Assembly (NCBI GenBank): GCA_013265495.1
Contig: MU058054.1
Coordinates: 496,001-560,000, forward strand
DNA: 64,000 nt
Direction: 5' to 3'
Source: Vicugna vicugna
Taxonomy: Eukaryota
In this document: positions 9,245 through 61,710 of the stretch, one piece after another
Layout: every line of letters starts with the position of its first letter
Position numbering within the stretch: position 1 is the stretch's first letter
Translations under genes and position numbers: made by a program
The notes under the pieces: model-generated
What the model was told of the DNA's origin: nothing
Databases searched by the model: none
What the model saw: the letters and a program-made list of their open reading frames with translations, nothing else

Positions 9245-9312
9245 ATATGACAGCATTGCCTTCATTTCTTCATCACTTCTCACTGTAATTCGATCACCAT
9301 CTTCATCTTCAT
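9245..9312 (-). CDS. MAP2K5: MAP2K5 coding exon 3 (68 nt): (Y)EDEDGDRITVRSDEEMKAMLSY, acidic OPCA motif of PB1
   Basis: Acceptor aaacag| and donor |gtaagt; phase 1 start matches exon 2; cumulative CDS 252 nt. Exon 4 was not found and presumably lies left of the window. Confidence 0.97.
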
Positions 9313-12300
9313 CTGTTTAAAAAGCAACATCATGCAAGTCATACGATTTGCATTTGTGTAATGTACAAAAACTACATCAACTGGGAACGTAATATAATTG
9401 GTTTGTACAACGTGATACCCAAATCCTCAACACCACATTTTAGGGATGGTGACTTTATTGGTTTGTTGGGGTTTTCTTGTTGCTGTTCAGAAAACAACCA
9501 CAATCTCAATAGAGAACTAAAAATTTTAGGGACAGCTGAAAATTAAAATAGTGCTCACATCATTCATGACACATATCTAAGTTAAGGTGAGCAGAACTTG
9601 AGTATGACTAAATAGGTTTCGTTAGGAGAACATTAAAAACCAGAGAGGCCAATTTTACTCAACTATTAGTACTTCTTTTCCCACATGGCATCCCATCCCT
9701 TGATCCCTCCCCATCACCCTTTCTCCCAGGCAATCTACCACATCATAATAGCATAATAAAAATGGCTAACATTTCCTGAACACTGCTATACACAAGGCAC
9801 TGAGATTTATGCTCCACACACAACATCCCCTTAACCTCACAACGATCCCCTGATGTGGACAGTACAACTTATTATCATCACTCCCTTGATGCAGAACTGG
9901 AAGCCTCGTGTAAGGTTAACGTCAACGGTTCTCGTCATCACCCACTTGACCTTGTAGCTCTTCTCTTTTCCAACTGCTCCATTTGTACTGGGTACTCTGG
10001 GACCACAGGAAGCTTCAAATGGTGGTCTGTGCTACTGTGAAATTATTTAATGGTCCCAAAACTAGAGGGTAGTAAGACTTCCCAAAATACTTAACCAGAA
10101 TGGATACATTTGAGTAAGTGGATCATCAAAGTAGCCACAACCGGAAACAATGTACTTATTTCATTAATGCTTCTCTTATTCAAAATAGTTTTGAAATACC
10201 TCTTCAAAACAGCTTTAAGAACCTGAAGATAAACCACGTGAACATATCAGATCTCATTTTTAGCCCTAAATGGAACTGTCCATCTGATCACTCACTCAAC
10301 CTACACAATGTACCAGGCAGGACCAAGAATAACTTTTGGCTGTTTCTGAATATTTAGTTAGTTACTTCACTCTACTAAAGATAAAAGTCTGTGAACAGGA
10401 GAACAACCTATGCGGTAGACTCTACATGTACAGCTGAAAGAAAAATGCCAAAACATTTTGAGCGATGGCGGCACTGCTGGAAGACACAGCCTCCCAGGGG
10501 GACAACTTGGAAGGGACAGGCTCTCTCTCATTTTCGTGCCTCAGCTCTGGTGCACTTGTTAAACTGTGTTATTATTATTTGGTGGGGGAGGTGCTCTTAG
10601 GCATCTAATTGCTGATTTGATCAGATGCAGAGAACCTGATCCCAGGCACTGGAGAAAAAGATAGATCTCTCATCATAAAGACAGTAAGCTAGCATGACAT
10701 GCTCTGGGGACTCTCACTGAAAATGCAAGGGAGCTCAGTTCAGCACCTGGATCTCAGCCCACACCCCTCAGCAGGCCCTCCCTCCTGTCCACCTACAGTT
10801 CTTAAGCTATCCCCCTACTGGTGAGCAGGCCCTGGGAGCCCTGAGAGGGAGCTTGTATTCGCTCCTAAATAACCACTTCAGAGCAAAATGCTACCTGCTT
10901 TTTCTCCTCAACAGCCAACAGCAACCTGACAGCATGAGGCAGACTGCCACTTGTGCCTGCCCTGCTCAGTGACCAAGCCAACAGCCCTCACTGGGGTCTT
11001 CTCTCTAAAGCAACCGTTACCTGGATCTGAGATACCGTTCACTCCCGCAGAGTTCCCACCTCGATGTAAATCAGTATCATCAAGTCACAGTGTCTGAATA
11101 TCTGCGTAGCTGGGAGCCGTCAGTCACTACTGGTGTCATTACTACCAAGAGTTGCACGCAGGGGACACTTTCAGTAACAAAGAAGGCACATTCCTACGGA
11201 GGTTACATATAGAAAGGACTACACAGAAATCCAGCATTTTCCTGTCCTCTTTTTTTTTTTTTTAAGATACAAATTAGGAGAGAAATGCTATTCTAGTTTT
11301 GGAAACAGAAGGAGTTTCTACACAGGTTTGAGAAACTAGTATTTTCAAGGTTAAGTCAAAAAACTTTCTTGCAAACGCAGGCAACAAAAGGGGCAAAATG
11401 ATACTGTATAAAGGGACATATTACCACACATGAAAGCACTTAACATTTTTGTTTTGAAGCCAAATCAAATGATCGGTTTGGATGTGTACTAAAATGATTT
11501 GTTCCTGATGAAGTCCTGAACTTGGTAAAATTTCCAGCCTGAATAAAGTAGCTTTTTGTAAATCTCACCTGTACACCAGAGCTAGCTATAGAGATGGTCA
11601 CCACACAGGGACAGATGACAGTCAAGTTCAACATTCACAAGGCCTCAGCAAGGCACTGTTCACATGGAACGAGGAAGTGCTTCGAGTTTAATACAACAGG
11701 TGAAAAACCTTTTTATAATTTGTAAAGGGAGGGCACAGATTCCAGAAGAAATCATTTAAACACCGTTTTCTCTAAATCAGTAGCAACAACAAGGACAAAA
11801 AAGAGTTCTTTAAGCTCTCAGAGCCAAGGCTTGAACATTTAAGGTGACTTAGAACAAAGGATTCTGGAATTCTATGAAATCTCGGCGAGATAATTTCAGC
11901 AAAAAAAACTGTGAGGGGGGTCAATTACCAGAAAAAATCATACATATGTAACATATATAACCAAACATACATACATAGAAAATGTAGCAGTTCCATGGAA
12001 AGCAGCTATGAAACACTAAAGGGTACCTTGTGTTAAGTGGACAGGAAACTGAGGACAAATGGCCAGAACAGTTTTTGGTGCAAACTTAAAGCGTTGCAGC
12101 TGTCCCATAAAGAGACAAGGTAGGTTGAAAGACGCATCTTGATAAAGCCTGAGGATAAAACCAGCTTTATATGACACAGTGATGAATAGTTCTTAACGGA
12201 TTAACAAGAGACTCCATTTCACATAGGTACTGCTTTCCCTTACAGAAACTGCTCTTTGGAGGGCTGTTTGCTTCACTCTTTAATATTTGCAATTAGTAGT

Positions 12301-12505
12301 TTCAATGAAGACTTCCTGTTCTTGTCAGAAAGGAGACTGAGTTGGAAAAGTAATTATACATAAGAGAAGACTAATGATTCTGGTCCAAAGGCAAAATCCA
12401 AGCTATCAGACCCTGATGGCAACCCAAGGGCAAACCATAGGCCTTGGCATTTCAAATGAGAATACACTTCTCTCTCAAGACAAGGGATTCCAAGGGAGGC
12501 ATAAA

Positions 12506-13440
12506 AATAACCAAACAGGTACATGAAAAGGAGCTCCATATCCCTAATTATCAGGGAAACAGAAATCAAAACCACAGTGACATATTATCTCACACCTGTT
12601 ACATAACTAGCTTCAAAAAGAGATAGCAAATGTTGGTGAGAGTGTGGAGAAAAGGGAACCCTTGTGTACTGTAGGTGGAAAGGTAAGAGGGACAGCCACT
12701 ATGGAAAACAATATGTGGTTCCTCAAAAAATTAAAATTACATTAACTTCTGATCCAGCAATCGTACTTCTGGGTCTATATCCATAGGAATTGAAATCACA
12801 ACCTCACAGAGAGATCTGCACTCCAATGTTCATTGCAACAGTATCACAATAGCTAAGATATGTAAACAACCTAGGTGTCCATCAATGGATGAATGGATAA
12901 AGAAGATGTGTGTGTGTGTGTGTATAAACACACACGCGCGCGCGCACACACATGCAGAGGAATATTATTCAGCCAAGAAAAAGAAACACGGATGATGAAA
13001 CTTGAGGGCATTATGCTAAGTGAAGTAAGTTAGAGAAAGACAAATACTGTAAAATATCACTTATATGTGGAATCTAAAATAACCCAAACTCAAGAGAAAC
13101 AGTAAAGGTTACCAAGGGCTGAAGGATAGGGAAATGGGGAGATATCTGTCAAAGAGTACAAATTTCCAGTAATAAGGTTAACAAGGTCTGGGGACCTAAT
13201 GCACAGCATGGTGATTATAGTTAATGACACTGTGTTATATACTTGAATGCTGCTAAGAGAATAGATCTTAAATGTTCTCACTACAAAAACAAAATGATAA
13301 TTATGTGTCAGGATGGACATGTTAGCTAACACTATGGTGGCAATCATTTTGCAATATGTAACTGTCAAATCAACATGTGTACACCTTAAACTTACACAAT
13401 GTTATGTGTCAATTATATCTCAAGAAAGCTGGAAAAAAAT
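12506..13440 (+). mobile_element. L1M (L1MA/MB-type) ORF2 end plus 3' UTR
   Basis: atcagggaaa..aaatcaaaaccacagtga, gtccatcaatggatgaatggataaagaa, ending ttatatctcaagaaagctggaaaaaaa. Confidence 0.85.
12907..12951. repeat. Compound (TG)n/(CA)n/(CG)n microsatellite inside L1
   Basis: tgtgtgtgtgtgtgtgtataaacacacacgcgcgcgcgcacacaca. Confidence 0.9.
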
Positions 13441-13519
13441 TCTTTAAATGAAGCAAATGAATTGATAGGAATGAGAAGTGAGGGAAGTGGAAGAAAGCAG
13501 AAACACACACCAAGCAATT

Positions 13520-14620
13520 TAGTATGACAATAACTTAAAATACTTTTCTGAAGAAAAAGTTGGACATACACAGTCAGCCTATCTAGCAAAGACTCTGGCT
13601 ACTGGCCTATCAAATTGGATTAGCTTTAAAAAGTACATTAACTGGAACCGTAAATCACAAAAACTCACTAAAATGGTGCAAAGAGTTTCAAAGGTATAAA
13701 TATACTGAAGAGCACTAGAAAGCCAAGGCCCTAAGTAGAGACAAGTAGAAAAAAAATACTTTGAACTCTTTTTGTCTTACACGTGGAGGTTCTTTGCCAT
13801 CTGACCAAAAAAGCATTACTAGATATGGCCAAGGTGGGGGGGAGGATCCGATACCCTGGTTCACAATGAGAATTCCAGGCTTCTCTCGTTGCCTGGGGCA
13901 CAGTAATATGATTTTCCAGCACATTAGGGAAGCAAAAGTAGAACCAGAAAGTCTATGTACTGGCTGGATTTTGTTAATGTCACTTAAAATGGAGGAAAAA
14001 ATCCTAGCAAGATACCAAATAGAGTGCAGCAGATGGCAAACAAATATTATGAAGCAATCTTCACAAAATCTGCAGTGTGTCACAAATATACAAAATGGCA
14101 GAGTTTGGGAAAAGAGAATCATAACGGGCCATATGTTGTTAGCGATTTTATTTGAAGCAACATGCAATCCAAAAGAGAAACCAAGAGGAGGAACATAAAG
14201 GCCCAATAGAGGAGAGGCAGCCCCAGGTAAGGGGCGGTCAGGATGGCAAGCGGGGCGCCTACCGAGTCAACAGCAGACAGAGAGCAGACTCCGGGGAGCG
14301 CCCGGCCCACTGGCACCCACCGCTGTGGCAGGGCTCAGGCGGGCTTTTGAGAGAAACAACCTAGCATCTACCAAGAGCAACAGGAAGTCAAGCCAATACT
14401 GTATTTTATATGTCATTTGTCATATCACTTCAGTGCCAGGGAAGAGTCGATTAGAACTACAGCAAAGGCATTTTTCTCAGGCAAGAGGAAAGAAATGAAA
14501 ACACAACTGTAGAGGTTAGAAAGACATCAACAGGAAATTACCAGAAAAGTCGTCAAGTTTAGAGCCCTTCTCAGGTGTGGAATCTGAGATCTGGTGTGGA
14601 CTAGAAGCCATAGTGTTCGT
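13520..14620 (+). mobile_element. Degenerate non-LTR retrotransposon RT fossil, Hero/R2-like
   Basis: Collinear frameshifted motifs TLFVLHVE, FFAI, DTLVH, IPGFSRCLGHS..IREAK, WLDFVN, IP..V..M..KYY, WQSLGK, IITG..L.ILF, KGP..RQPQVR..QDG, KLPEK/KFRA resemble Hero RT domains as recalled. Confidence 0.7.
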
Positions 14621-14709
14621 GGTTGAATCTTCACATCCGTGAGGTGTAATTTCGCCCCAGGCCTCTCACCGCTGCTTCTTTCTCACTTCTTTGCTTCCTT
14701 TCTCTTTCC

Positions 14710-15330
14710 AAAAAATGTGTAAGCGCTGCCCACCACGCAGCAGGCAATGTTCTGGGCACTGGTACAGTTTAACAGCGGGAAAAGGAAAAGGCCTGCCCTC
14801 ATGGAGTTTGCACTCTACTTAAAAGGGATGAGGAAGTGAACCCCACAGGTATCTGGGGAGAGAATATTCCAGGCAGAGGGAACAGCTAATGCTAAGACCC
14901 TGAGGCAGAAGACCGCCTGGCATGGTCAAAAGAATGACAGAAAGCCAGAGTAGCTGGAAGAGAACTGAGAATAGGTGGGGGAGAGAGGCAAGTCCAGAGA
15001 AGTAATGGCGGGGCAGGGTTGGGGGCAGACGAAGAAGTGCAGGGCCTTGAAGGGCACGTTAAGGACTTGGCATTCACTCCCAAGTGAGATGGAAACCACC
15101 AGAGGATCTGGAGTGTAGTGACCGCACTTAACTTCTAACAGGATCACTTTGGCTGCTGTGTGGAAAAGAGGCCATGTGGGGCAAAAGCAGAAACAGGGAG
15201 ACCAGTTAGGCAACCACCGTCCTAGCCTAGGGGAGAGGGGCTGGTGGCCTAAAACGGGCTGAGGTTTTGAGCAGTCATCACATGCTGGATGTATTTTAAA
15301 GGCAGAGCTAACCAGATTTACTGATGGATG
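14710..15330 (+). mobile_element. L2 fragment
   Basis: gccctcatggagtttgcactcta, ccaggcagagggaacagc, aggatcactttggctgctgtgtgga motifs typical of L2 (element antisense to + strand). Confidence 0.7.
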
Positions 15331-16419
15331 CGCTCTGGACGGCTTGTCCATGTTACTTCATTCCTTCAAGCAGCCGTGCATTCCAGAAACACATGCTGAG
15401 AATGTACTATGTACCAGGTACCACGCTGGGTTACTAGGGATTCAAAAAGGAGCAGCACCATCTCTGACCTCAAGGAACAACTGGCCTTGTGCTTAGGTAA
15501 GACTTAAACCTCTTACTGCTCACGTGAAATAGCCAGACTACTGACCCCTACTCCTACAAACAACTACTTTCCTAAGACTAAAAAAGACTCGTACTTTTCA
15601 CATCGATACTACGGAATTTGAATAAATTAAAGCTCTCTTCAAATCATCTCAGATTCGAGGTACACAATTCTTAGGTGTTATATAATTTGTAGACTCAGTG
15701 TATGTCTACTGTTAATTACAATTTTCATTAATCTACCCAGTTTTATTTACAGGCAACCAGTTATCTTTTACATATGCTATAGTTTAAGCAAATAAAACTT
15801 CATTTTTCCCAGAATTTTTCCAGAAATTCACAAAACAACTGAAAAAGATTCCATTCAATGAGAAATGAGTATAAAATAATCATCATTGAAGAAAAACAAA
15901 TAAAATAAAGATTTATCCTATAGTCATATTTTCTGAACCAAAATTCAGACATGATTTGATGAGTGTGAAGATATTTAAGAGGGCTACAGACCAAAAGATG
16001 TGAAGTCAGAGCATCATGGAAAAGCAGGGCCATATGGTATTTATAGATATAAGTCAGCATTTGTCTACATAGGCTTAAAATGCCATCTTTCAAGTCACCA
16101 GTAAGATCTTACTATCCAGCAACACCAGCCCAACAGTCATTTTACAGCAGTAACTTGTCTAGAGAAGGTCCAGGGAAAGGAACACATGTAACAGACACGC
16201 ACAGGAAACTCATTAATGGGCACAGTGGATTTCCGTCACCTCATGTGTTGGTGTACTCATCAATCTGTTAATGAAACTGTGCAAATCAGCAGGGGCCTTT
16301 GGGCCCACAGCATATGGAAGGCCACTACATGCAAACATACAAGATATTCTATGGTTACGGAATTTAGCTGCATCTTGGAAAAGACAAATTAGTCAATAAC
16401 CAGTATCTGCTTGAAAAAT

Positions 16420-17590
16420 AAAGTTGGCTCCCCTTCTGACTCCTCCTTTCACCAAAATAAAATGAAGATGGCCCAAGAATTTTTTAAAAATCTTCTGTGT
16501 AATAAAAATGCATGCTGTTTTACAAAATAAAAAAATCTACACAAATACATATTTATAACATACTTAATGTGCATGTTTACTTAACCCTATTAAAGTGGAA
16601 AGAAAAGAGAGTATGAATGAATGTTTTTTCAACCTCTTGGAATGTGGAAGACCTTTCTAAGCGTGACATAAACTGAGAAGTCACAAAGGAAAATAGGATA
16701 AATCTGACCATGTAAAAACTTAAAACTTCTCCATGGGGGGAGAAAAAAAGAGAGGAAAAAAAGACCAAAACAAGCTGAAAGGAAAGGCAATAAACTAAAC
16801 AAGAAGATTTATAATGTATAAGACAAAGGGCCAATTTTCTTAATATTGGAAAGCTCTTAAATCAACTACAAAAAGACAATCTAATAGAAAAATGAGCAAA
16901 GGTGATAAATAGTTCACAGAAATTAAATACAAATGACCAAAATATAAATGAAAACATGCTCAAGCTCATTTATAATTGAAGAAACACAAAATAAAACAAT
17001 AATAGAATAATCCTTTTCCACATATCAAACTGGCATCAACTAAAGTCTGCTGGTACCCAGAGCTGGTGAGAGTAGAGGGAAGTGGGCGTTCTCAAACACT
17101 GCTTGTGGGAATGCAAACCGGTTCTAACTTTCGAAGAGCAACATGGAAACAGCTGTTAAAATGTAAAGTATGGATACTCTTTGTCTCAGTAGTTCTAAAT
17201 CCTAGAAATTTTATCCTACAAACACATTTCTACAATGTGGAAAACCATAAGGCAATGCTGTTGACTGCAGCATTTTTTCTTTCTAATACTACTGAAAAAC
17301 TGGTAACAACTTAAACTTAAAACTGGTCCATCAATAGGTTAAATAAAGCCACAGTTATAAAATTAAGTATAATGTAATCATCCGAAAGAATGAAGTTGAT
17401 TTGTGCACACTGATGCTGGAAAGACTCCCAAGATATACTATTAAGCGGGGGCATAGGAAACTGGTTGCAATATAGTTTATATCATGTATGAAAAACATTC
17501 TGTAAGGACAGAGAAGAAACTGTTAACTAGTGAATTGGGGAAATGAGGACTTTTCTTGCTTTATTTCAATACTGCTTGAATTTTTAAAAA
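16420..17590 (+). mobile_element. Old L1 (L1ME-like) fragment
   Basis: A-rich degenerate ORF2/3' UTR motifs (aaatgagcaaagg, aacactgcttgtgggaatgcaaa, ctagaaattttatcct). Confidence 0.65.
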
Positions 17591-21304: not shown

Positions 21305-21353
21305 ATTCAAATGCTGTGGTTGTTGCTTCAGGCAGAACCTGGCCTATCACATC
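21305..21353 (-). CDS. MAP2K5: MAP2K5 coding exon 2 (49 nt): DVIGQVLPEATTTAFE
   Basis: Acceptor tgtttag| and donor |gtaagt; in frame with exon 1; MEK5 PB1 sequence. Confidence 0.97.
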
Positions 21354-27408: not shown

Positions 27409-27543
27409 CAGCACGTCCCTGAAGAGTAGCTGCGGCCCGGAGTGCACTGTCCAGTCCACCGCTCCACTATTTGGAATCTTGATGCGAATCACCAGCACCT
27501 GGTTCTCCATGGCATGGAAGGGACCAAGGACCAGCCACAGCAT
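27409..27543 (-). CDS. MAP2K5: MAP2K5 (MEK5) coding exon 1, start of PB1 domain: MLWLVLGPFHAMENQVLVIRIKIPNSGAVDWTVHSGPQLLFRDVL
   Basis: ATG at 27543-27541; 135 nt; peptide matches the known MEK5 N-terminus; ends at CTG|gtgagt donor (27408). Confidence 0.97.
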
Positions 27544-28500: not shown

Positions 28501-29539
28501 TGCCTTTACAGAAGGCTGAGAGGATGGAACGGCAGCTCTCCTTTATCCCTGCTAGTCTGGCCCTGCACCTAAATGTTCGTGGGGGTTTGTGCATCAAATC
28601 ATCAAGAGCACGGGTGCCTTTTTCTTTTCCTTATTCCAAGTCACAGATCCAGAGATCATCATCTTTCTCCCCAACGAGCAAAGGGAGTATGGATTTTTTT
28701 CAGTAAGGTCCTTCATCCCACCGTTGCCCTAAAATAGTAAACAGCCCCCTATTTAAAAGCAACAGTACATAAGTCCAGTGGAGTTTAACTGCCTGGGGAC
28801 AGCTGCAGTAGTGGCATCGTCTTTTCTTATTAAACCGTTGCAAAAAATATCCGGTCTAGTCCGTAAGTTGTCAACTAGATAGCCATTTTACCTAATCAGT
28901 GATGTCACAGGCAGTAGCAATAACCCTTGGTTATTTTTAAGTGACTTGTTAACCTCAGATTTTTAAATGCATAATTTTGTTGATCTATGATGTAGAAGTT
29001 TGTTTACAAATTGCAACGCGTGGGTTCGTCCTTTATCTCTTTCTAAGAAAATTGCACACACCGCTTTACTTTGGGGGACTGAATTTTGTATAAATTCGCT
29101 GCGGGATGAATGTCATTTTTCTCTCTGATAGTCAAATAGTTGATTAATATGAGAAAAAATAATTTAAATATTGGTCAGTTTGGGTATAATACCAATTTTT
29201 TTCTGCATATTGTTTCTGCCTGCTTTCGTTTTATATTTAATTTGAAAGTCCATTGTAGAAGACAAATTATCTCTTTTCAGTTATTGTAAATTAATGGCTT
29301 AGGTAGGAATTCATTTAGTCAGATACTCCACATAGTGTAGGAATTGCCCCTTTCCACCTGCACTTCAGTCCTGTGAAAAATAAACCATCTGCTCAAGGTC
29401 CCCGTGCACTTTTTATTGCAAGTTCATTTCCTATTATTTGAGAAAATAGACCACAAAACTAGAGATTTTCCATGAAGCCTGATTTGTTAAAATGGCTTTT
29501 TTATTCATAGTACTATGGGGAAAACCAACTCAATTTGTA

Positions 29540-29910
29540 CTTTCAATTCTTTTGGACATATACCCACAAGTAGAATTGCTGAATCATATAATAATTCTGT
29601 TTTTCACCTGTTTGAGGAGCTGCCATTTTCCACGATGGCCACACTATTTTGCATTCCCACCAATAGCCCAAGGATTCCAGTTTCTCCACATCTTCACCAA
29701 CAATTGTTATTCTCTGTATTTTTGTTAGAAGCCATCCTAGTGGGAGTGAGGTGATACCTGATTGTGGTTTTGATTTGCATTTCCCTAGTGATCAGTGATG
29801 TTCACCATCTTTTCCTATGTCTGTTGGCCATTTGTTTATCTTCTTTGAAGAATTGTCTGTTCAAGTCCTTTGCCCATTTTCAGTTGGGTGATATATCTTT
29901 TTTGTTGTAA
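29540..29910 (-). mobile_element. L1M ORF2-end fragment
   Basis: ttttgatttgcatttccctagtgatcagtgatg, ttcaagtcctttgcccatttt. Confidence 0.8.
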
Positions 29911-29999
29911 AGTGATTTTTTAATGAGACAAATTAACATTTTAGTGTTACACCTTCAGAGAATTCATCTCGTTTTACCTTACTCCCAACCTTGAGTCCT

Positions 30000-35154: not shown

Positions 35155-36320
35155 AAATTATTTTTATATACGGTAAAATACACATCACATACAATTTACC
35201 ATGTTAACCATTTTTAAGTGTACAGTTCATGTTAAGTAATTCACATTACTGTGTAACTATCAATACCATCCATCTCCAGAATTCTTTGTATCTTGCAAAA
35301 TTGAAACTCTATACCTATTAGATACTAGCTGCCCATTTCCCCTCCCCCTTTACTAATTTTTTAGCAGCTTTATTAAAAGATAATTTACATATCATACAGT
35401 TCTTCTGTTTTGAGTATAGTCAGAGTTGTGCAATCATCACTGCAATCGATTTTAGAACCATTTCATCACCCCAAAAAGAAACCCCATGCCCAGTAACAGT
35501 CATTTCTCATTTCCTCCCAACCTCCCTAGCCCTAGGCAATCACTAATCCACTTTCTATCTCTATAGATTTGCCTATTCTGGACATTCATATAAATGGAAT
35601 CATAGAATATGTGGTCTTTTATGATGGGCTTCTTTCACTTGGCATAATGTTTTCAAGCTTCATCAATGCTGTAGCATGGACCAGTACTTCTGTCCTTTTT
35701 GGGCTGAATAATATTCTCTTGTGTGAATATGCCCATTTTATTTTTATTATCAATTGATATAAAAGTTATTTCCAATTTTTGGCTAGAACAAGTAATATTA
35801 TGGATATTTGTATACAAGTTTTTGTGTGAACATATTTTCAGCTCTCTAGGGTATATACCTAGGAATAGAATTGCTGGGTCATGTGGTAATTCCTTATTTA
35901 ATATTTTGAGGAACCACCAAACTTTTCCGAGTGGTGGCACTATTTAACATTGCCCCACTAGCAATGCCTGAGGGTCCCAATTTCTCCGTATTTCTTGTCA
36001 ACACTTGTTATTATCTGTCCTTTTGATGATTGCCATCCTAGTGGGTATGAAGTATTATCTCACTGTGGTTTTGATTTGCACTTCCGTGATAGTGTTACAC
36101 ATCTTTCATGTTCTCAGTGGCTATTTGTGTAAGTTCTTTGGAGAAATGTCTGTCCAAATCTGTTTTTCAATTGGATTGAGTTATAAGAGTTCTTTATATA
36201 GTCTGGCTACATGTTCCTTTTCAGATATATGATTTGCAAATACTTTCTCTTATTCTGTCAGTTATCTTTTCATTTTCTTGACAGTGTCCTTTGAAACACA
36301 AAAATTTTTAATTTTAATGA
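35155..36320 (-). mobile_element. Two adjacent L1M 3' fragments
   Basis: Two L1 3' starts (~35155, ~35360); ttcatataaatggaatcata, ggaaccaccaaacttttcc, tgatttgcaaatactttctc. Confidence 0.8.
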
Positions 36321-47884: not shown

Positions 47885-49190
47885 AAATTAGTTATACAAC
47901 GTTGATAGATTGGAATATATTAAAATTAAGAATTTTTATTCTTTAAAAGGCACTATTAAAAGAGAGTGAAAATGTAATCTAAAGAATGGGAGAAGTATTT
48001 GCAATACATATATCTGACAAAGCATTTGGTATTCAGAACAAATCATTAAAAAAAAAAAAGAGAGTCCAATAGAAAGGTGTAAAATATTTGAATGGACTCC
48101 TCAGAAAGGAGAACATCCAGATATCCAATAGACATGTGAAAAGGGGCTTAATTTCAAAATCATCTGAGAAATGGGAATTGAAACCCCAATGCAATACTGA
48201 AACCAGAAAACACCCATCAGAGTGGCTAAAGTAGAAAAGACAGAAAGTATTAAGTGTGGATGAGGCTTGGTGGCAGTTAGAACTTTTATGCACTGCTGGC
48301 AACCACTATGGAAAAATTTTTGGCAGTTTAAATTAAAGCTGAATACATGCATACCTTACAACTCAGCCATACCACTCCTAGGTTTATATTTATATATTTA
48401 TATTAGTGTGGTCAGACTGCTGTAACGAAATACCACAGACCAGGTTTAGCCAACAGCAGAAATTTATTTCTCACAGTTCTGGGGACTGGGAAGTCCGAGA
48501 TGAGGTGCTGGCTGATTGGGTCCCTGGTGAGAGTTCTCTTCCTGGCTTGTGTTTCCTTCTTGCTGTATCCTCCCATAGCAGAGAGAGCTAACTCCATCTG
48601 ACTCTTTCTTCTCTAATGAGGGCATCAGCCCTGTTATAAGGATCCCACCCTTATGACCTCATTTAACCTTTATCACCTCTTCATACATGAGGCCATATCT
48701 CCAAATCCAGTCACACTGGATATTAGGGCTTCAGCCTATTCAGCATATTTTGAGGGGACACAAACATTCAGTCTGTAACAATTCCCAACAGAAACTGTAT
48801 GCATTTGTTCTTCCAAAGACATGTATCAGAATGTTCATAGCAGCACTATTCATATTTGTAATAGTTGACCTGGAAATTACTCAAATGCCTATCAGTAGTA
48901 GAGCAGATATACAAATTGTGGCATATTCCTGTGATGGAATAATGTACAGCAATGAGAAAGAATGATCTACAATCACACACAACATGCATGAATCTCACAC
49001 ACATAAGGAAGAGTGAAAGAAGCCAAATACTAAAGTACTTACTGGACGATTTCATTATATAAAGTATAAACCTGGCCTAAACTCGTCTGTGTTGTTAGGA
49101 GGCCAGATAGTGATCACTCCTGGGCAGAGAATTAGTGGCTAGGAGGAGAATGAGGTGACTTCTGGGGGACCGAGATTATTCTCTGTCTTT
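47885..49190 (+). mobile_element. Old L1 fragment interrupted by an MLT1 LTR
   Basis: tttgcaatacatatatctgacaaag, actcagccataccactcctaggt, resuming with agaatgttcatagcagcactattc after 48780. Confidence 0.7.
48399..48780 (+). mobile_element. MaLR (MLT1-type) LTR
   Basis: gctgtaacgaaataccacagac..atttatttctcacagttctgggg..ttatgacctcatttaacct..acattcagtctgtaaca. Confidence 0.8.
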
Positions 49191-54064: not shown

Positions 54065-54650
54065 TGTTTTTTCATGAACAGCTTTTTGAGGTATAATTGA
54101 TATTCAAACACTGCACATACTTAAGGTGTACAGTCTGATAAGTTTTGACATACATATGCATCCAAGAAACCACTCTCACAAATCAACATAGTGAAGCCCC
54201 AGAATTTTCTTTCTGCCCCTTTGTAATCCTCCTGCTCCTCCCCTTCTCTACCATCCCACTTCCCACCCCCAAGCACTATTGATCTGATTTTTGTCACCAT
54301 AGTTTGCATTTTCTAAAATGCTATATAAATGGGTATGTACTTTTTTTAATCTGAAAATTTTCATTCAGCATAATTATATTGAGATTCATCCATGTCTCTG
54401 AGTTTATCAACAGTTCACTCCTTTTTATTGCTAAGTAGTATTCCATTGTAAGGATATCCCACAATTTGTTTATCCATCCACCTGTTGTTGGACATTTGGG
54501 TTGTTTCCAGTTTGGGGCTATTACACATAAAGCTGCTGTGAACATTTATGTACAAGTCTTTATATGCTTTCTTTTCTCTTGGGTAAACGACTAGGAGTGG
54601 ATTGGCTGGATTATATATTAAGTGTAGTAACATGATTTTCTAAATGGCTA
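54065..54650 (-). mobile_element. L1M 3' fragment
   Basis: ttgaggtataattga, ttgagattcatccatg, gttgtttccagtttggggctatta. Confidence 0.8.
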
Positions 54651-60079: not shown

Positions 60080-61710
60080 TTTTATTTAGTTATTTTTTAT
60101 TGAGGTAGAATTCCTATACCATAAAATACACCCTTATAAAATGAATAATTCAGTGGTTTTAGTATATTCATAAGCAACCACCACTAGTATGTTATTCCAA
60201 GACATTTTCATCACCCCAAGTATAAACTTTATACCCATTAGCTGCCATTCCCCATTTTCTCCCTCTCCTGGCTCCTGGCAACCTCTAATCTCTTTTCTAT
60301 CTCATTAATGATTTGCCTACCTGGATATTTCATGTAAATGCAGTCATACAATATGTGGCCTCTTGTGTCTTAGCATAATGTTTTCAAGGTTCATCCATGT
60401 TGTAACGTGGATCAGAACTTAATTTCCTCTTTATGGCTAAATAATATTTCATTATATTATACCTATTTTCACTTTGGTTGGTTGCACTTTAGGTATTATG
60501 CCTAAGAAGCCATCGCTAGCCACAAGGTGATGAAGATTTATACCTGTGTTTTCTTCTAAGAGTTTAACAGCTTTAGCTCTTACACTTGTGTCTTTGATCC
60601 ATTTTTACTTAATTTTTGTATGTGCTATAGAATAGAGAGGTATAACTTCATTCATTTATATGTGGATATCCACTTGTCCCAGCATCATTTGTCAAAAAGA
60701 CTGTTCTTTTCCCATTAAATAGTTTTGACACCCTTGTTGAAAACCAGTTGCCTGTAAATGAAGGAGTGTCTTTTGGACTCTCAGTTCTATTCCATTGATC
60801 TATATGTCTGTTCTTATGATAGTATCACACAGTCTTGATTACTGTAGCTTTGTAGTAAGTTTTAATATTGAGAAGCCCTCTAACTTGGTTCTTCTTTTTC
60901 AAGGTTATTTTGACTATTCTGAGTCTCTTGCATTTCCACATGAATTTTAGGATTGCCTTGTCAGTTTCTGCAATAAAGCCAGCTGGGATTTTGATAGAAC
61001 TTGCATTGACTCTGTGGATCAATTTGGAGAGTACTGCCTTTTTAACAATGTTAAGTCTTCCATTCCATGAACACAGAATATCTTTCCATTTACTTAGGTC
61101 TCCTTTCTTTTATGATGTTTTACAGTTTTCAGTGGATAGGTCTTATACTTTTTCTGTTAAACTTATTTCTAAATATTTTTTTCTTTTTGATTTTTAAAAA
61201 ATTGATTTAAAATTAGTTTTTGATTATTCAAAAATTGATTTAAAATTACTTTTTGATTATTCATTGCTATTGTATAGAGATATAATTGATCTGGTATATT
61301 GATCTTGAGTCTTGCAACCTTGCTGAATTTATTTAAAAACTCTTAATAGATTGTTTCTTGGTTCCTTAGGATTTTCTACGTATAAGATCATGCCTGCTGT
61401 GAGCAGAGATAATTTTGCTTCCTTCTTTCCAATCTGGATGCCTTTTATTTCTTTTTCTTGCCCAACTGCCCTGGCTGGAACCTCCACTACAATGATGAAT
61501 AGAAGCGGTGAGAGCAGATATCCTTGTCTTGCTCCTGATCTTGGAGGGAAAGCTTTCAGTCTTGCACCATTAACTATAACATTAGCTGTGGGGTTTTCCT
61601 AGGTGCCCTTATCAGGTTAAGGCAGTTACTTTTTATTCCTAGTTTGTTTGAGTGTTTTTATCAAGAAATGGTGTTAGATTTTGTTAAACGCTTTTTCTGC
61701 ATCACCTACC
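60080..61710 (-). mobile_element. L1M fragment (3' UTR joined to ORF2 segment)
   Basis: ORF 60825-61022 (-) IKIPAGFIAETDKAILKFMWKCKRLRIVK...YYKATVIKTV is L1 ORF2-like. Confidence 0.88.

Follow-up and report, generated by a model that had tools for sequence, protein, structure and literature searches.

A remnant of a Hero-clade retrotransposon in intron 2 of MAP2K5 in Vicugna vicugna, probably retained as noncoding DNA

Can a handful of short peptides, scattered over the three forward frames of an intron, be the remains of one reverse transcriptase (RT) gene, and if so, of which clade, over what length, and why has it lasted? These questions are raised by a stretch within 64,000 nucleotides of contig MU058054.1 of the Vicugna vicugna assembly GCA_013265495.1 (the window, that is, the whole stretch of DNA that was analysed). 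For this locus the original prediction proposed, from the letters alone, an ancient Hero insertion antisense to MAP2K5 in its intron 2, with about eleven motifs in the right order and the catalytic FMDD box decayed to GQDG. Three-frame translations and the list of open reading frames (ORFs) contain the eleven peptide pieces on the + strand where they had been placed, at positions 13598, 13690, 13765, 13790, 13850, 13872, 13961, 14012, 14118, 14185 and 14520. The Hero motifs used for comparison were also accurate, as the full-length metagenomic elements L009 and L010 carry them almost letter for letter.

The genomic setting is given by three coding exons and by an L1 copy, which are the following:

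~27409..27543, - strand: MAP2K5 coding exon 1 with the start codon (translation holds MLWLVLGPFHAMENQVLVIRIKIPNSGAVDWTVHSGPQLLFRDVL)
~21306..21353, - strand: MAP2K5 coding exon 2 (translation holds DVIGQVLPEATTTAFE)
~9245..9313, - strand: MAP2K5 coding exon 3 (translation holds ..EDEDGDRITVRSDEEMKAMLSY)
12517..13440, + strand: younger 5'-truncated L1 with the end of ORF2, the 3' region and a closing A-rich run (tblastn, A-run)

The exon translations are the window's own, and we take them to be MAP2K5 by short motifs of this protein. Since exons 1 to 3 lie on the - strand on either side of the fossil, the latter, on the + strand, is antisense to MAP2K5 and located in intron 2, whose length is about 12 kb. 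Concerning the L1, an intact L1 ORF2 of the same genome matches 12517-12980 (+) in tblastn with an E of 2e-24, and the A-run is found at about 13433-13441, so that the copy lies directly upstream of the fossil. Other L1 ORF2 fragments are present in the window at 29508-29942 (-), 35848-36306 (-), 48159-48389 (+), 54387-54557 (-) and 60533-61703 (-). The genome has many L1 copies whose ORF2 is open over about 1293 aa, and L1 therefore looks recently active in V. vicugna.

Homology was measured with a Hero-like profile of 1090 positions built from 33 metagenomic ORFs, using our own local alignment routine that permits frame changes. Against 13300-14800 the profile alignment followed a single collinear path, almost exactly the stitching of the original prediction, and scored 154 half-bits over 13610-14235 (+) and profile positions 304-531. 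Dinucleotide shuffles of the same DNA scored 37.6 +/- 3.9 with a maximum of 53.9 (0/300 reaching 154), and among 81 further tiles of 1.5 kb, taken from the two strands of the window, the top score was 47.9 (0/81 reaching 154). The collinear match to Hero/R2-like RTs is thus significant. Nearly all of its signal is concentrated in one segment:

13872..14153, + strand: core of the Hero RT fossil (profile 149 half-bits, tblastn pile-up, published alignment to HEROTn residues 486-588)

For this core, which corresponds to the published stretch at 13869-14153, shuffles gave 26.0 +/- 3.8 and none of 300 was as high as 149. The same place stands out in tblastn with metagenomic ORFs of at least 140 aa against the whole window, which returned 905 HSPs at E up to 10. 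The + strand bin of 13-14 kb holds 110 of them and the + strand bin of 14-15 kb holds 22, while the remaining 126 of the 128 bins contain at most 20 HSPs each; the best E was 2.3e-7. The core displays the motifs IPGFS..CL.H..IREA, WLD, IPNR..YY and W..L.K.IITG..ILF, which in Malik-type numbering are presumably RT motifs 2a, 3/A (WLD kept) and 4/B (IITG..ILF). They are spread over three frames; the frame shifts near 13944, 13963 and 14108, an insert of 9 bases lies near 13985-13993, and a gap of 10 residues is present.

Short peptides stitched across the frames of AT-rich intron DNA could mimic RT motifs by chance, and some results would fit such an origin. Pfam returned no RT family for six single ORFs or for the three frames translated throughout, stops being written as X. 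Sequence searches against solved structures, made with the ORF and two read-through frames, returned no R2 or other RT either; all the matches were unrelated, namely glomulin (whole-sequence E 0.0075-0.21), a Fab light chain and VC1899, with domain E of at least 0.045. Likewise, the 149-aa ORF that covers the core found no transposon protein among 1.84 billion proteins; its only four matches were short ORFs (49-111 aa), 81-96% identical, which represent the same stretch called in other assemblies. In addition, the outer motifs (13610-13871 and 14520-14566) are not clearly above shuffles. Against chance stand the scores of the core and of the whole alignment, which neither shuffles nor natural tiles reached, and the human orthologue, which was detected independently in print with an E of 3.4e-6 (PMC9004415). 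Chance resemblance is rejected for the core by the shuffle and tile tests, and we regard its probability as negligible. Some five motifs thus exceed chance by far, another two or three are plausible, and the remainder is indistinguishable from chance.

How far the remnant of the RT gene extends beyond the core is a matter of degree, and four further segments have to be considered:

14154..14244, + strand: probable continuation on the downstream side, ..HKGP.. followed by RQPQVRGGQD, with the decayed catalytic FMDD box at its end (L009 and L017 alignments)
13765..13871, + strand: possible upstream continuation (TLFVLHVE, FFAI, ITRY, DTLVHN compared with TISLLNVEGKIFF..LA.RLT.Y..DTSVQKGG; profile and L010 alignments)
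13610..13764, + strand: possible, weak remnant of the RT N-terminal part, near the APGPNGI.YK.YK.CP motif (profile positions 304-360)
14520..14566, + strand: last motif of the original prediction, KDINRKLPEK / KFRA compared with GLPGKFKAW, unsupported and not counted in the fossil

The downstream segment contains one further frame change near 14169-14190. With eight single Hero-clade proteins its mean anchored gain was 11.9 (equalled by 2/200 shuffles) and the best gain was 28 (0/200); these alignments pair RQPQVRGGQD with RQPPTRAFMD and RQPSVRGFMD and end at 14244. With the profile, on the other hand, the anchored gain of 4.7 was not significant (94/400 shuffles as good, and 292/500 and 374/500 in the band test). 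The proposed decay of FMDD to GQDG has the support of the single proteins but not of the profile.

Upstream, the reading of 13765-13871 requires four or five frame changes in about 100 bases. The best local alignment in 13441-13868 scored 34.3 at 13610-13775 and falls on the expected diagonal, and 22/300 shuffles reached this score. Anchoring the upstream DNA to the core brought no gain with the profile (106/400) or with four single proteins (48/200). When the test was confined to the expected diagonal, 4/500 and 9/500 shuffles were as good, with band widths picked after seeing the alignment.

Further out, profile positions 501-1090, which comprise the CCHC and the PD-(D/E)XK endonuclease, scored at best 40.0 in a local search against 14154-15600; 9/150 shuffles reached this value, the alignment falls outside 14520-14566, and tiles over 14245-16500 stayed at null level. 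The N-terminal zinc finger left no signal in 9400-12505, which scored at null level (31-38), likewise with the L1 removed, and the joined score stayed at 154.0. Loss of the CCHC and endonuclease through decay would be expected for such an old fossil.

From these results, 13872-14153 is certain, 14154-14244 is probable, 13610-13871 is possible and the rest is noise. The proposed series of about eleven motifs therefore holds in the core, with moderate support in the downstream segment and mixed or weak support upstream, and lapses at 14520-14566. Whether the recognisable Hero remnant is nearly twice as long as the published 285 bp, with the decayed FMDD box still visible, is about evenly balanced. 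A GC-rich, CpG-containing patch (62.5% GC, versus 34-45% in the bins of 13400-14199) occupies 14200-14400 and starts where the Hero alignment stops; it may have been inserted later or may be an element of its own.

Assigning the fossil to a clade required reference elements. A degenerate DNA pattern for the motif WLDLANAYG was scanned on metagenome contigs and gave at least 119 stretches, mostly RT genes, from which five non-RT stretches (L002, L082, L083, L118 and L090) were excluded by eye. Several of the elements are full-length, each a single ORF of 990-1260 aa in which an N-terminal zinc finger is followed by the RT, a CCHC motif and an RPD..E..K nuclease motif. This is the build of the R2 group of non-LTR retrotransposons, to which Hero belongs and whose elements carry a restriction-like endonuclease. 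The link between these elements and named Hero proteins is given by L009, which by eye is identical to the printed HEROTn residues 486-588 at 64/103 positions, or at 55/94 without the nine residues used for selection. Apart from this assignment, the marine and freshwater metagenomes (L002-L120) yielded several distinct clades of full-length endonuclease-bearing LINEs from a single 9-residue pattern, one of which is large and carries GLFQGC...YADD motifs (L067, L061, L024 and others). They represent eukaryotic retrotransposons left unannotated in the metagenome assemblies.

Scored one by one against the fossil with BLOSUM62, L009 and L010 reached 142-144 and their clade-mates L034, L098, L028, L011, L017, L076 and L020 reached 64-132. 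Sixteen proteins of other endonuclease-bearing clades scored 42-101, and seven L1-type ORFs of the V. vicugna genome scored 34-44, which is the null level; an L1 identity is rejected on this basis. A phylogeny with metagenomic references was built from 60 RT cores, two L1 outgroups and two fossils (the present one and L144, described below), with X at every break. In it, the fossil joins L009 and L076 with an SH-like support of 0.99, and this group is nested in an 11-tip clade with L010 (0.953). The fossil rows of this tree derive from an alignment to the profile, for which the same elements had been used, and mutual attraction of the two decayed sequences is possible in it.

The fossil might instead belong to another LINE clade known in mammals (Mam_R4/Dong, L2, CR1, RTE or L1) and be mislabelled Hero. 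The comparison set consists of metagenomic elements and L1-type ORFs of the same genome, and the Hero-like profile also gives intact L1-type RTs of the same genome 97-266 half-bits, so that the profile score alone is not clade-specific. Nevertheless, the single-protein scores are graded by clade, the tree puts the fossil beside L009 and L076, and the protein aligned to the human orthologue in PMC9004415 is HEROTn. This alternative is very unlikely, and the fossil is taken to group with Hero RTs, the references being the metagenomic elements and the HEROTn of that paper rather than named R4, NeSL, R2, L2, CR1 or RTE proteins. The ancient Hero insertion that had been proposed is in this way supported by the profile, the single-protein scores, the tree and the published HEROTn alignment.

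The HEROTn of Tetraodon, HERO-2_BF and HERO-1_SP are named in PMC9004415 after Kojima and Fujiwara 2004. The fossil shares with these Hero elements the RT motifs in the same order, and its nearest relatives, which are Hero-like, combine the RT with a zinc finger, a CCHC motif and a nuclease of the PD-(D/E)XK type. In contrast, only about 95-210 RT codons are left in the fossil, their frame is broken, and no zinc finger, endonuclease or element ends are detectable, the flanks having decayed past recognition and the L1 having inserted just upstream. The fossil and real Hero proteins have at most one 5-residue word in common. Mam_R4 (Dong/R4), which the same source names as the other human relic of an endonuclease-bearing LINE, descends from a parent element of the broad R2-type architecture also seen in Hero; the non-Hero endonuclease-bearing clades of the present set score 42-101, against 142-144 for L009 and L010.

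The suggested novelty of the fossil did not survive a comparison with the literature. In Frith 2022 (Mol Biol Evol 39:msac068, PMC9004415), the human counterpart appears in Table 3, Fig. 5B and Suppl. Fig. S1A. Table 3 lists it as an R2-Hero fossil matching HEROTn at chr15:67,559,478 (hg38), 285 bp long, in a MAP2K5 intron of 13 kb, with the E value given above and an amniote age, among ten Hero fossils tabulated for human. In Suppl. Fig. S1A, HEROTn residues 486-588 are aligned to chr15:67,559,763-67,559,479, and this MAP2K5 fossil is labelled as that of Fig. 5B. The same text describes the fossils of Fig. 5 and Suppl. Fig. S2 as not annotated by RepeatMasker, lying in regions conserved in non-mammals and having strong phastCons conservation in mammals, and the Hero fossil of Fig. 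5B as overlapping a CEBPB binding site.

A comparison by eye of the printed human DNA with window positions 13869-14153 shows about 9 mismatches over the 285 bases (about 97% identity), so the fossil of the window can be identified as the orthologue, in another mammal, of the published human fossil. Both lie in the same gene and intron class, the intron measuring about 12 kb here and 13 kb in human, and they share the strand relation and the RT segment 486-588. In relation to the published 285 bp, the remnant described here is longer by about 90 bp downstream, to the decayed FMDD box, with moderate support, and perhaps by 100-260 bp upstream, with weak support. Other literature on R2-Hero and human did not, judged by titles and abstracts among the matches listed, concern Hero relics in mammals. 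The fossil is already known, its human counterpart having been in print since 2022, and what is added here is the likely extension to the catalytic box and a second fossil, L144.

The latter came from a genome-wide search for further copies. As DNA, the fossil stretch is single-copy in the 2.03-Gb assembly, as had been suggested. As protein it is not alone: a search of the genome with a 125-aa Hero-like piece gave 23 matches, which included the window locus and L144 (G000:C11982:732082-732249, +, in the stretch 730582-733749; E 3.4e-5), the rest being weak (20-24% identity). PMC9004415, as noted, tabulates ten in human. A search with a 361-aa Hero-like RT was dominated by L1 copies, and no Hero fossil was seen among the 113 of 2630 candidates scored. 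L144 is a second Hero RT fossil at a different locus that spans the same RT segment as the window fossil (profile 407-542, score 138.5). The two are identical at 40/102 residues at common positions and are sisters in the tree (support 0.983). At common codons only 178/306 nucleotides are identical, and for this reason L144 is considered to have inserted separately, long ago, rather than to have arisen by recent duplication. Its human counterpart may be among the other nine Hero fossils of Table 3 in PMC9004415.

Regarding its coding capacity, the RT frame over 13872-14244 shows at least four frame changes, the 10-residue gap and stop codons. Motif A retains WLD, and the catalytic FMDD reads GGQDG. 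It is a dead fragment that no longer codes, as befits a fossil rather than an active element.

The conserved stretch could nonetheless be a coding exon or a small gene, either as a domesticated RT piece or as one of two ORFs that cover the core, of 149 aa (+, 13749-14198) and 183 aa (-, 13715-14266). The + frame of the 149-aa ORF is also open for 49-272 aa in other assemblies (P0001-P0006). However, over about 60 residues this ORF is out of the RT frame and hence no RT remnant as such, and neither long ORF is in the RT frame throughout. We estimate that chance alone predicts about one stop-free run of 183 codons per 64 kb, and no family or structure match was found for the ORFs. Moreover, in the human sequence printed in PMC9004415 one G-to-A change creates a TAG in the frames of both ORFs, which makes it most likely that these frames are a side effect of conservation of the DNA. 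A coding role as an exon or small gene is thus extremely improbable. A related reading, in which the core is part of a transcript or small ORF that is conserved and runs antisense to MAP2K5 and the Hero-derived sequence was taken over for its product, is conceivable in view of the frame that stays open here and in the other assemblies, and is highly improbable as well, if slightly less so.

The conservation itself is local. The ORF P0005 of another assembly is identical to the window at 79/88 residues over 13884-14147, and at 22/45 over 13749-13883. Together with the near-identity to the human DNA and with the amniote age and phastCons conservation given in PMC9004415, this places conservation far above that of the adjacent intron and across distant species. 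A true Hero fossil without function could also have been kept by a locally low mutation rate only. In line with this, the scan for C/EBP motifs, based on a consensus, found no significant transcription-factor motif: a single C/EBP-like site at 14049-14058, with 2 mismatches, at a background rate of 2.7 per kb. Rfam, searched with 13000-15200, gave no RNA family. A locally low mutation rate has to contend, though, with the near-identity to human over the 285 bp, with the sharp drop of conservation just outside the core, and with the phastCons conservation in mammals, the alignment to non-mammals and the CEBPB overlap described in PMC9004415. Preservation by a low mutation rate only is very unlikely. 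Instead, the core was probably taken over as noncoding, most likely cis-regulatory, DNA, as argued in that paper. The suggestion of a conserved, exapted fossil missed by repeat annotation had in fact already been reported there for the human orthologue.

Taken together, 13872-14153, probably to about 14244 and perhaps back to 13610-13765, is very probably the remnant of one Hero insertion that was later adopted by the host as noncoding DNA. The homology, clade, position and loss of coding in this account were computed here, and the age, mammalian conservation, non-mammal alignment and CEBPB overlap are those given in PMC9004415. A Hero-clade element would have inserted, in antisense orientation, into what is now intron 2 of MAP2K5 before the amniote divergence. 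Its coding ability would then have been lost through frame changes, the 10-residue deletion, stops and the change of FMDD to GGQDG. A core of about 260-285 bp would have been adopted by the host as a noncoding, most likely cis-regulatory, element, which may account for its survival over more than 300 million years. Such a takeover would imply that selection has acted on the DNA rather than on the protein. The neighbouring parts of the element would have decayed near-neutrally, and this may be why the flanks are barely detectable.

In conclusion, a true RT fossil more than 300 million years old was found by reading alone, and it belongs to a clade that is missing from standard mammalian repeat annotation. 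Of modest remaining interest are the possible reach of the remnant to the decayed catalytic box, L144 as its closest relative in the same genome, and the near-unchanged retention of 260-285 bp of RT-gene DNA in intron 2 of MAP2K5.
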